The notes under the pieces: generated by a model | Databases searched by the model: none | The model's input: only the letters and a program-made list of their open reading frames with translations | Told to the model about the DNA's origin: nothing | Position numbers and translations under genes: made by a program | Assembly (NCBI GenBank): GCA_903873715.1 | Contig: CAIQPS010000029.1 | Location: 3,210-67,209, forward strand | Reading direction: 5' to 3' | DNA length: 64,000 nucleotides | Source of the DNA: an uncultured Actinomycetes bacterium | Lineage (GTDB): Bacteria > Actinomycetota > Thermoleophilia > RBG-16-64-13 | Part shown: positions 14,524-15,764 of the stretch, in pieces | How the letters are laid out: each line of letters starts with the position of its first letter | How positions within the stretch are numbered: the first letter of the stretch is position 1

Positions 14524-15764
14524 ACGCCCCGCTGCAGACCCGTACCCAGCCCTGGCCCCGCCTGGTCTTCTGGGAGACGACGGCCGGCTGCAACCTGGAG
14601 TGCTCGCATTGCCGGCGCACCGACGTCTCCGACGACGTCATGCCCGACGAACTCACCACCGAGGAAGGCGAACGCCTCATCGACGAGATGGCGGCATGGG
14701 GCCGCAGCATCCTGGTGTTCTCGGGGGGCGAACCGCTCCTGCGGCCCGACATCTTCCGGCTGATGAAGTACGCCAATGAGAGCGGCGTCATCGTGGCGCT
14801 GGCGACCAACGGCACCCTCATCGACGAGCGCGTGGCCGCCAAGATCGCCGAAGCCGGCACCGACCGGGTGAGCATCTCGCTCGACGGGGCCGACGAAGCC
14901 ACCCACGACGCCTTCCGCCGCCTTCCCGGGTCCTACCAGGCCGCCCTGAACGGCATCCATCGTCTCAAGGAAGCCGGCGTCCCCTTCCAGATCAACGTCA
15001 CCGTGGCCAAGCACAACGCCGACCAGCTCGACCGGATGGTGGCGCTGGCCAAGGAACTGGGCGCCGCGGCGCTGCATCTCTTCCTGCTGGTGCCGGTGGG
15101 CTGCGGGATGGAGATCGCCGAGGAGCAGACCCTCCAGGCGGACGCCTACGAGGCGACCCTCAACTGGCTCTACGACACCGAGCGCCGCGAGCCCGACCTG
15201 CAACTCAGGGCCACGTGCGCGCCTCACTACTTCCGTGTGGTCAAGCAGCGCCAGGCGACCGAGTCCAAAGAGCAGCGGGCGGCCGCCATGAGCGCGGGAC
15301 ACCCCGGTGGTCACCCTGGCGGTCACCCTGGCGGGCGTCCCGGCGGGCGTCCCGGTGGGCATCCCGGTGGCCATCCAGGGCCGGTCGGGGGCGACGGCGA
15401 GCGCGGGGCGCTGCATGCCTACACACGGGGCTGCCTCGCCGGCACCGGCGTGTGCTTCGTATCCCACGTGGGCAAAGTCTACGGCTGCGGGTACATGCCG
15501 GTGGAAGCCGGCGACCTGCGCCAGACCAGTCTCGAGGATGTATGGCTCAACAGCGAGTTCTTCGCCGAGCTTCGGGACTTGGACGCGTTGAAAGGCAAAT
15601 GCGGGCCCTGCGGCTACAACAGGGTGTGCGGGGGCTGCCGGGCGCGTGCCTACGGCAGCACCGGCGACTACCTGGCCGAGGAGCCGTTCTGTGCATACAT
15701 CCCGGGCGGTAGCGCCGGGCGGGTCGCGGTGGAATCGAGCAGCGAAGGCGGAGCGGACAGATGA
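14520..15764 (+). CDS. Radical SAM/SPASM-domain protein of the AhbD/NirJ family (candidate anaerobic coproheme decarboxylase / heme synthase)
   Basis: The ATG overlaps the hemH stop (ATGA). CNLECSHC radical-SAM cluster motif. C-terminal SPASM cysteines (CGPCGYNRVCGGCRARAY). Contains the (GHPG)7 repeat. Its stop overlaps the hemA start. Confidence 0.7.
   Translation: MNAPLQTRTQPWPRLVFWETTAGCNLECSHCRRTDVSDDVMPDELTTEEGERLIDEMAAWGRSILVFSGGEPLLRPDIFRLMKYANESGVIVALATNGTLIDERVAAKIAEAGTDRVSISLDGADEATHDAFRRLPGSYQAALNGIHRLKEAGVPFQINVTVAKHNADQLDRMVALAKELGAAALHLFLLVPVGCGMEIAEEQTLQADAYEATLNWLYDTERREPDLQLRATCAPHYFRVVKQRQATESKEQRAAAMSAGHPGGHPGGHPGGRPGGRPGGHPGGHPGPVGGDGERGALHAYTRGCLAGTGVCFVSHVGKVYGCGYMPVEAGDLRQTSLEDVWLNSEFFAELRDLDALKGKCGPCGYNRVCGGCRARAYGSTGDYLAEEPFCAYIPGGSAGRVAVESSSEGGADR
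15297..15380 (+). repeat. In-frame 12-bp tandem repeat x7 encoding (GHPG)3(GRPG)2(GHPG)2 inside the radical SAM gene
   Basis: GGACACCCCGGT / GGTCACCCTGGC / GGTCACCCTGGC / GGGCGTCCCGGC / GGGCGTCCCGGT / GGGCATCCCGGT / GGCCATCCAGGG, read directly. Confidence 0.85.

Follow-up and report, generated by a model that had tools for sequence, protein, structure and literature searches.

The window analysed here is a stretch of 64,000 nt (positions 3,210 to 67,209, forward strand) from contig CAIQPS010000029.1 of GenBank assembly GCA_903873715.1, which derives from an uncultured Actinomycetes bacterium. On its + strand it carries a gene for an AhbD-like radical-SAM/SPASM heme synthase (14520-15764, 414 aa), whose ATG overlaps the stop codon of the ferrochelatase gene hemH and which has a Shine-Dalgarno-like GGAAGGGAGG upstream. 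Within this gene lies a tandem array of seven in-frame 12-nt units (15297-15380, + strand), corresponding to residues 260-287 of the open reading frame (ORF). The array encodes, in unit order, GHPG, GHPG, GHPG, GRPG, GRPG, GHPG and GHPG, with His at 5 of its 28 residues. Position, unit number, frame and host enzyme had been given in the same way by a first-pass annotation made from the letters alone, and sequence and ORF agree with it. The array is a coding minisatellite that enlarges a His-rich loop, predicted to be disordered, of the AhbD-like enzyme. As an AhbD-like heme synthase gene within a coproporphyrin-type operon, the gene itself belongs to a familiar class; the His/Pro/Gly repeat loop is the part that the literature searched does not describe.

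At the DNA level the seven units read GGACACCCCGGT, GGTCACCCTGGC, GGTCACCCTGGC, GGGCGTCCCGGC, GGGCGTCCCGGT, GGGCATCCCGGT and GGCCATCCAGGG. The only two that match exactly are units 2 and 3, which gives a longest perfect tandem stretch of 24 nt. Units 4, 5 and 6 are each one nucleotide off from their neighbours, and the remaining unit pairs differ at 1-5 of the 12 positions. Five of the 12 DNA columns vary, namely all four third-codon positions and one second position, at which His (CAT) is exchanged for Arg (CGT). The repeat had been called perfect; this holds for the period and for the G-x-P-G peptide, but not for the DNA.

Tandem Repeats Finder (TRF) reported the array with a period of 12, 6.8 copies, 83% matches and a score of 66, the top score in the window. 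However, when the window was simulated 40 times with a second-order Markov model, two of the runs attained this score as well. The score alone is thus a weak measure of significance, and it was replaced by the criterion of a period of at least 9 with at least 5 copies. No such array arose in 100 second-order Markov simulations of the window. The array is therefore beyond chance because of its regular long-period structure and its recurrence in homologues (described below), and not because of its TRF score. Six-frame translation of the window gave no further tandem G[HR]PG. The runner-up tandem repeats, at 10100-10143 and 62914-62964, both have an 18-nt period, with 2.4 and 2.7 copies and TRF scores of 60 and 54, respectively; the former falls inside the span of an RmuC-family gene (10074-11396, - strand). 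Two other descriptions of the array were considered and rejected. It is not a collagen-like (G-X-Y)n repeat, as its period is four residues (G-H-P-G) and Gly is out of triplet register. Nor does the gene lie on another frame or strand, as the GC content at third-codon positions is 0.80 for the AhbD ORF as listed (14283-15764) and the flanking motifs are conserved.

A protein identical over all 414 aa is recorded on contigs of three ENA samples, and the one of these contigs with readable DNA (L081) matches the window at 100% identity over 4327 nt. Assemblers can collapse or expand repeats, and an assembly artefact had been named in advance as one of the findings that would undo the observation. 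The same protein in three samples together with identical DNA in another assembly shows that the array is real. Furthermore, an array of 84 nt is shorter than ordinary short reads, and imperfect repeats over this length are resolvable within single reads. Homologous arrays are present in many unrelated assemblies, and the reading frame and the conserved flanking motifs are intact. An artefact is thus extremely unlikely and can be set aside for practical purposes. A scan of Joint Genome Institute (JGI) metagenome contigs with the exact 24-nt flanks gave no match, and the exact 414-aa protein was absent from the clustered protein collection.

Pfam places a Radical_SAM domain at residues 19-176 (E = 2e-31) and a SPASM domain at residues 305-364 of the protein, and the array lies between the two, as first described. 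The top NCBIfam model was TIGR04545 (AhbD heme b synthase) with 437.3 bits, in a match broken in two by the loop. The next families, TIGR04053 (332 bits) and NirJ2 (326 bits), trailed AhbD by over 100 bits, but the native protein did not reach the equivalog cut-off of TIGR04545 (500 bits). When residues 253-296 were deleted in silico, the match became one stretch over model positions 1-339 of 339 and the score rose to 450.8 bits, which is still below 500. The loop was thus rejected as the cause of the sub-threshold score, since its deletion adds only 13.5 bits. We call the gene AhbD-like because its score stays below the cut-off even after loop deletion, though AhbD is the best family; judged by these profile scores, it belongs to a genuinely divergent subclade and is not a certified equivalog.

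By family assignment, the product of the AhbD-like gene would be an oxygen-independent enzyme that converts Fe-coproporphyrin III (coproheme) to heme b. Reviews report that AhbD-like genes occur with the coproporphyrin-dependent pathway and may perform this step anaerobically, and they cite no biochemical study of such members (PMC10114771, PMC13564367). For coproporphyrin-dependent organisms, AhbD-like enzymes have so far been inferred from genomes only. Coproheme binding by AhbD, re-orientation of the monovinyl intermediate and disposal of electrons are open questions (PMC10114771, PMC10452713). A sequence search of the PDB found no experimental structure of AhbD, and a Foldseek search of the PDB returned only generic SPASM/radical-SAM neighbours (SkfB, PqqE, BlsE, anSME and SuiB) at a TM-score of ~0.55.

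The placement of the array becomes clear from the cysteine pattern, all parts of which are encoded on the + strand. The radical-SAM cluster motif CX3CX2C (Cys24, Cys28, Cys31) is at 14589-14612. All eight SPASM cysteines are present, in the pattern C233-X71-C305-X17-C323-X37-C361-X2-C364-X5-C370-X2-C373-X17-C391. The pattern in Methanosarcina barkeri AhbD is C223-X32-C256-X17-C274-X37-C312-X2-C315-X5-C321-X2-C324-X17-C342, in which C223, C256, C274 and C324 are the proposed ligands of auxiliary cluster I (AuxI) (PMC10452713). The spacers are those of M. barkeri except for the first, X71, which because of the loop falls outside the X20-33 of the full SPASM motif published for AhbD of methanogens and sulfate reducers, CX20-33CX17CX36-37CX2CX5CX2CX17-35C (PMC10452713). 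The N-terminal anchor of the loop is CAPHYFRV (15216-15239), with Cys233 as the counterpart of M. barkeri C223 and putative first AuxI ligand. The C-terminal anchor is ALHAYTRGC (15408-15434), which contains His299 and Cys305, the latter being the counterpart of C256 and putative second AuxI ligand. The motif CX2CX5CX2C...X17C (Cys361, 364, 370, 373, 391; 15600-15692) would provide the AuxII ligands of the SPASM domain, together with its remaining AuxI ligand. Among homologues, G304, C305, L306, A307 and G308 are invariant, and a His matching His299 (in [LM]HA.T[RK]GC) is found in nearly all of the 120 homologues compared.

By this homology, the array segment would lie between the first and the second AuxI ligand. 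It had been described as a linker between domains. However, because both of its ends return to the same AuxI cluster (PMC10452713), it is better seen as a closed excursion than as an inter-domain spacer. A change in loop length would therefore leave the domain spacing unchanged, and the length would be free to vary because the excursion is tethered beside AuxI. AlphaFold2, run with a 77-sequence alignment, gave a model with a mean predicted local distance difference test (pLDDT) score of 76.9. On the Cys233 side, a predicted helix (residues 237-259; 15228-15296, + strand; DSSP assignment, block-mean pLDDT ~80-87) leads out to the array and stops exactly where the array begins. The pLDDT then falls below 50 at residues 267-269, 279-282 and 284-302, with block means of 42-54 over residues 261-300, and the SPASM beta-hairpin comes next. 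The predicted disordered segment continues beyond the array into its non-repetitive, Gly-rich rest, PVGGDGERG (residues 288-296; 15381-15407, + strand). The flexibility that had been suggested for the array is thus borne out at the level of prediction, with pLDDT below 50 for most of residues 260-302, and the array segment is predicted to be disordered.

To describe the loop in relatives, we compared 121 sequences, namely the query and its 120 best homologues, which are 55-82% identical to it. Those homologues that are named or could be traced to a genome belong to Actinomycetota and Chloroflexota, and P0084 is named Planctomycetes. At least one His-Pro motif was present in the loop of 103 of the 121 sequences; 18 had none, 32 had one, 28 had two, 24 had three, 14 had four, 4 had five and 1 had six. 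The window allele, with five His units and two Arg units, is at the top of this range. In the nearest relative (L080; ~79% DNA and 82% protein identity), the loop reads GHPG, GPPG, GHPG, GHPG. Pro-Pro-Gly is a classic ribosome-stalling motif that depends on elongation factor P (EF-P), and its presence in the GPPG unit could affect translation of the L080 allele. Other arrangements among the homologues include GHPGSG repeated three times and GHPA/GHPG repeated six times.

Most Chloroflexota among the species-representative genomes carry just one, well-conserved HDRQVNGHPHGQMHAATKGCLAG. Chloroflexota retain a conserved NGHPHGQMHAATKGC, and the non-repetitive GHPHG motif is found across many of their genera. 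Representative Actinomycetota genomes have 0-3 units. Planctomycetota relatives (44-48% identity) often have GHPGG..PGR.GHG, and Thermodesulfobacteriota relatives have a 38-residue loop with no His. GRPG or PGR units recur in other lineages. Among 50%-identity representatives, the span between the anchoring motifs was 17-114 residues with varied composition, and the GHP motif was restricted to the nearer AhbD-like sequences. The first-pass annotation had asked whether the insertion is lineage-specific; alignment of orthologues speaks against this, as the GHP(G/H) unit is common to Actinomycetota, Chloroflexota and some Planctomycetota and only the seven-unit amplification is special. On this distribution, the GHP unit is an old feature of one AhbD-like subclade, and the seven-unit array is a lineage-specific amplification of it.

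Repeats of unrelated content were found at the same place in other members. The loop of L009 contains a perfect 9-nt repeat in three copies, encoding (GGM)3, and the Planctomycetota-like L133, L137 and L140 have DNA repeats of 7-nt period that translate as ...IRNPKSEIRNP.... The loop of P0129 contains a ~30-aa duplication and that of P0198 contains (KTRPP)x3; P0138 was grouped with these two as a loop holding an unrelated repeat. Because unrelated repeats occupy the same site elsewhere, the Cys-Cys loop is a general hot spot for insertion and expansion.

Unit-sized changes in copy number, which the first-pass annotation had raised as a possibility, were indeed observed: proteins that are 96-100% identical outside the loop differ within it by whole units. 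P0070 and P0082 are 100% identical outside the loop, and one GSHP unit is swapped for a GGSA unit. P0070 and P0078 (97.9% identity outside the loop) have 5 and 4 units, P0003 and P0007 (98.9%) have 3 and 2 units, and P0011 and P0015 (97.7%) have 2 and 1 units, respectively. The DNA period of the array also differs between lineages, being 12 nt in the window, 18 nt in L082 and L083, and 24 nt in L080 and L024. In L082, three GHP units have identical codons, which marks a very young array. From the different periods and the whole-unit steps between near-identical proteins, we infer that slippage or unequal-exchange events occurred repeatedly and independently.

This lability raises the question of whether the array is a slipped-strand contingency locus, that is, a hypermutable tract with frequent and reversible copy-number variants within a population, as had also been proposed. 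The array shares with the contingency loci of host-adapted bacteria short tandem units in a coding region, the number of which changes by slippage. A frame-preserving 12-nt unit, whole-unit differences between near-identical homologues, the identity of units 2 and 3 and the single-nucleotide distances among units 4, 5 and 6 would all fit such a locus. However, the units are imperfect: only two adjacent ones are identical, the longest perfect stretch is 24 nt, and other units differ at 1-5 of 12 positions. In-frame steps of 12 nt cannot switch expression on or off, as the array lies inside the coding sequence of a loop that is closed at both ends. The gene encodes a housekeeping enzyme in a biosynthetic operon, and no within-population variation was seen; the three samples have the identical protein, with 100% DNA identity in the one that is readable. 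We therefore consider a contingency locus highly improbable.

The differences between units are informative about constraint. Pairwise comparison of the units in the window array gave 58 synonymous and 10 non-synonymous differences, and all ten of the latter are at the single H/R position. The distribution of the variable columns (four third positions and one second position) has a hypergeometric P of 0.01. In the five His units, the GHP codons differ on average at 2.3 of 3 synonymous sites. This synonymous-biased divergence points to selection on the peptide, as judged from the unit sequences. Across the 121 sequences, His makes up 11.4% of the loop and 2.7% of the remaining protein, and CAY codons are not favoured in the 67% GC genome of the host.

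The Arg-for-His units had been taken as a sign that the array diverged rather than arose by very recent duplication. Divergence is indeed seen, but not all of it is old. The two Arg units differ from each other, and from unit 6, by one nucleotide, and R and H are separated by a single CGT/CAT change. Since the Arg units and unit 6 differ by one nucleotide, the His-to-Arg change probably happened once and was then copied by local duplication. By the divergence of its units, the array is thus old, with some recent internal duplication.

The main alternative to a selected function is that the array is a neutral low-complexity expansion in a permissive surface loop, in which any His that matters would be the single conserved one by the GC(L)AG motif. 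Several of the observations above are consistent with this. Across the family the loop is anywhere from 17 to 114 residues long and its content is unrelated, other repeats occupy the same place (L009, L133, L137, L140, P0129, P0198), disorder is predicted for the segment, near-identical proteins can have different copy numbers, and the HP motif is missing in 18 of the 121 sequences. However, neutral expansion is weakened by the excess of synonymous over non-synonymous unit differences (58 against 10), and by the recurrence of GHP in three phyla at 45-82% overall identity. His is enriched ~four-fold in the loop despite the codon usage of the genome, and the non-repetitive GHPHG has been retained across many Chloroflexota genera. 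On balance we hold neutral expansion to be possible but unlikely. If the loop has no function, the array would be an ordinary low-complexity loop.

The genomic surroundings of the gene bear on what a selected loop might do. The AhbD-like gene is translationally coupled to the ferrochelatase gene (hemH/cpfC-type; 13630-14523, + strand), which matched TIGR00109 with 199 bits (cut-off 124.6). It is followed on the + strand by hemA (15761-17089), hemC (17086-18048), hemD (18045-18887), hemB (18874-19956), hemE (19944-21005), a hemY/CgoX-like gene of the protoporphyrinogen/coproporphyrinogen-oxidase type (21002-22621) and hemL (22618-23922). The order is thus hemH-ahbD-hemA-C-D-B-E-Y-L, in one direction and with mostly overlapping genes. 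By its gene content, the operon encodes a full coproporphyrin-type route from glutamyl-tRNA to heme, in which the radical-SAM enzyme takes the place of ChdC. The scan of the operon genes revealed no chdC, a result that does not extend to the rest of the window, where neither chdC nor cgoN was looked for. The hemY/CgoX-like family is oxygen-dependent according to the reviews, yet in this operon it is paired with an AhbD-like gene whose product is assigned as oxygen-independent.

The order hemH-ahbD-hemA and onwards is common to at least 28 relatives from Actinomycetota and Chloroflexota (L001-L029, L045), and the closest genomes to the host are those of uncultured Actinomycetota (Thermoleophilia- and Gaiellales-like metagenome-assembled genomes). 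In Planctomycetota (L030-L070), the AhbD-like gene instead follows hemA, and after it comes a second radical-SAM paralogue that shares 25-38% identity with the query and is presumably AhbC-like. Such a context is siroheme-type and differs from that in Actinomycetota and Chloroflexota, where the arrangement is hemH-ahbD. Upstream of the heme operon, between it and guaB (inosine monophosphate dehydrogenase), the - strand carries a 118-aa hydrophobic ORF with no Pfam match (13101-13457); another contig with the same AhbD-like protein has a 108-aa gene at this position. Elsewhere in the window, a 1196-aa fusion protein (2853-6443, + strand) combines Fer2_4 (2Fe-2S), Fer4_20, pyridine-nucleotide-disulphide oxidoreductase, 4Fe-4S dicluster and C-terminal thiamine pyrophosphate (TPP)-binding parts. 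This unusual architecture resembles a GltD-like reductase joined to a piece of a 2-oxoacid:ferredoxin oxidoreductase.

We propose the following explanation of the array. The starting point would have been one ancestral GHP(G/H) unit, of which most Chloroflexota orthologues still have a single copy. Replication slippage or unequal recombination would have multiplied it in several lineages, in steps of whole units, up to seven units in this organism. One His-to-Arg change (CAT to CGT) would have arisen on the way and then been duplicated. Selection would keep the G-H-P-G peptide while synonymous sites drift. This structural and evolutionary account is, in our judgement, likely to be correct.

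As to function, the imidazoles of the loop, on a flexible Pro-Gly turn scaffold, could transiently serve as axial ligands of coproheme or heme iron. In this role they might take over substrate from the ferrochelatase of the same operon, or keep the monovinyl intermediate or the product close to the active site; alternatively, they may bind another metal ion, and the metal binding that the first-pass annotation had suggested is thus still plausible. Copy number would then tune the reach or capacity of the loop, and would not turn the enzyme on or off. We propose His ligation because the substrate and product are iron porphyrins, to which His binds readily as a ligand, because the substrate must be released, turned and rebound between two decarboxylations, and because the gene for the substrate-producing ferrochelatase is translationally coupled to the AhbD-like gene. 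Gly/His/Pro units of vertebrate histidine-rich glycoprotein (HRG) and the His-rich linker of haloarchaeal PitA offer analogies, which are set out below. According to a proposal by Fix et al., AuxI may assist in the release, rebinding and orientation of the monovinyl intermediate. Nevertheless, ligation of iron or metal by His as the selected function is a tentative proposal with the balance against it, and the identity of the ligand is speculative. The combined statement, that an amplified ancestral GHP unit in a loop pinned at AuxI is kept as a flexible ligand of coproheme/heme iron or of a metal, stands in our view at an even balance. A more specific version is that the loop is a subclade-specific His-Pro-Gly tether that takes Fe-coproporphyrin from ferrochelatase, keeps its iron ligated during re-orientation and hands on heme b; this we regard as rather unlikely. 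If it is true, the loop would be convergent with the PitA linker and would indicate that the final step of heme synthesis generally calls for transient ligation by His.

Instead of heme, the loop might bind a metal ion (Fe, Ni, Zn or Co) as a site for Fe-S loading or repair, for regulation or for storage, comparable to the His-rich tails of HypB, UreE and SlyD. HxH or HH clusters are typical of such Ni or Zn tails, whereas the array has a single His per unit, separated from the next by P-G-G. In addition, no metallochaperone genes are present in the heme operon, and the substrate and product of the enzyme are themselves strongly bound by His. The dense His with flexible Gly and Pro would nevertheless suit a metal site, as would the anchoring of the loop at an Fe-S cluster (PMC10452713), and both the His-rich PitA linker, which binds immobilised Co2+ (PMC5746218), and the GHHPH repeats of HRG, which bind Zn2+ (PMC5372734), provide precedents. 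Taken together, binding of a metal ion in place of heme appears improbable.

Another alternative assigns the loop a mechanical role. The (PGGH)n segment would form an elastic lid of Pro-Gly turns, or a docking element, that gates the active site or touches ferrochelatase or an electron acceptor, with His and Arg providing charge or pH sensitivity. The P-G periodicity is like that of turn-forming repeats such as VPGVG in elastin and GPGGX in silk. Arg replaces His in two units, GRPG/PGR recur in other lineages, and the coupling of the ferrochelatase gene to the AhbD-like gene would fit a docking function. However, AlphaFold2 gives the segment no defined conformation, and a lid does not explain why His is the favoured residue. 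We thus consider this role very improbable.

Several findings weigh against His ligation by the amplified loop. The loop is hypervariable (17-114 residues), and other members have unrelated repeats or no His in it. Characterised AhbDs work without such a loop, and 18 of the 121 close homologues lack the HP motif. Even within the array, Arg replaces His in two of seven units, so His is not needed in every unit. We also looked for a clean tie of His-rich loops to the adjacency of ferrochelatase, as opposed to an ahbC-like neighbour, and did not find one. The Actinomycetota and Chloroflexota, with hemH-ahbD, have the motif, but the loop lacks His in Thermodesulfobacteriota relatives, in which hemE and hemH lie immediately downstream of ahbD, and Planctomycetota in which the gene is next to an ahbC-like paralogue do partly have it. 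Binding of heme or metal by the array is suggested by inference and analogy, and the closeness of the loop to AuxI by homology.

With these points taken into account, the array is of interest in three respects. The conserved, His-rich and length-variable loop at AuxI provides a concrete and cheap handle on substrate handling in this subclade. It is also a clear sequence marker for the AhbD-like subclade. Finally, it is a small and clean example of a coding minisatellite that appears to be under peptide-level selection, with an ancestral single motif and independent amplifications of 12, 18 and 24 nt.

Compared with characterised AhbD (M. barkeri and Desulfovibrio; TIGR04545), the protein described here has the same CX3CX2C motif and the same eight-Cys SPASM pattern with spacers X17, X37, X2, X5, X2 and X17. 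AhbD is its best family match, over the whole model once the loop is removed, and its gene is likewise in a heme operon. It differs in scoring 437 bits (451 without the loop) against a cut-off of 500 bits, and in the first Cys-Cys spacer, which is 71 residues with a His/Pro/Gly repeat rather than 20-33. The genomic context differs as well, being coproporphyrin-type, with hemH and a CgoX-like hemY, and not siroheme-type with ahbABC. In the literature searched, we found no description of a His/Pro/Gly repeat loop between the first two AuxI cysteines and no biochemical study of a member of this AhbD-like subclade; searches for such a loop turned up only the analogy with PitA.

Two unrelated proteins resemble the loop. 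Vertebrate HRG also has tandem short Gly/His/Pro units (GHHPH), in a region reported to bind heme and Zn2+ (PMC8843877, PMC5372734). However, HRG is a eukaryotic plasma protein with a pentapeptide that contains three His, and there is no homology; a role of the array as ligand would be an analogy. PitA, a haloarchaeal ChdC-ABM fusion, is likewise an enzyme that converts coproheme to heme and likewise has a His-rich, flexible, low-complexity segment, a linker that binds immobilised Co2+ (PMC5746218). In contrast to the AuxI-anchored loop, the PitA segment is a true inter-domain linker in an unrelated, aerobic host of the ChdC fold. With no homology between the two, the resemblance of PitA to the AhbD-like loop would be convergent only.

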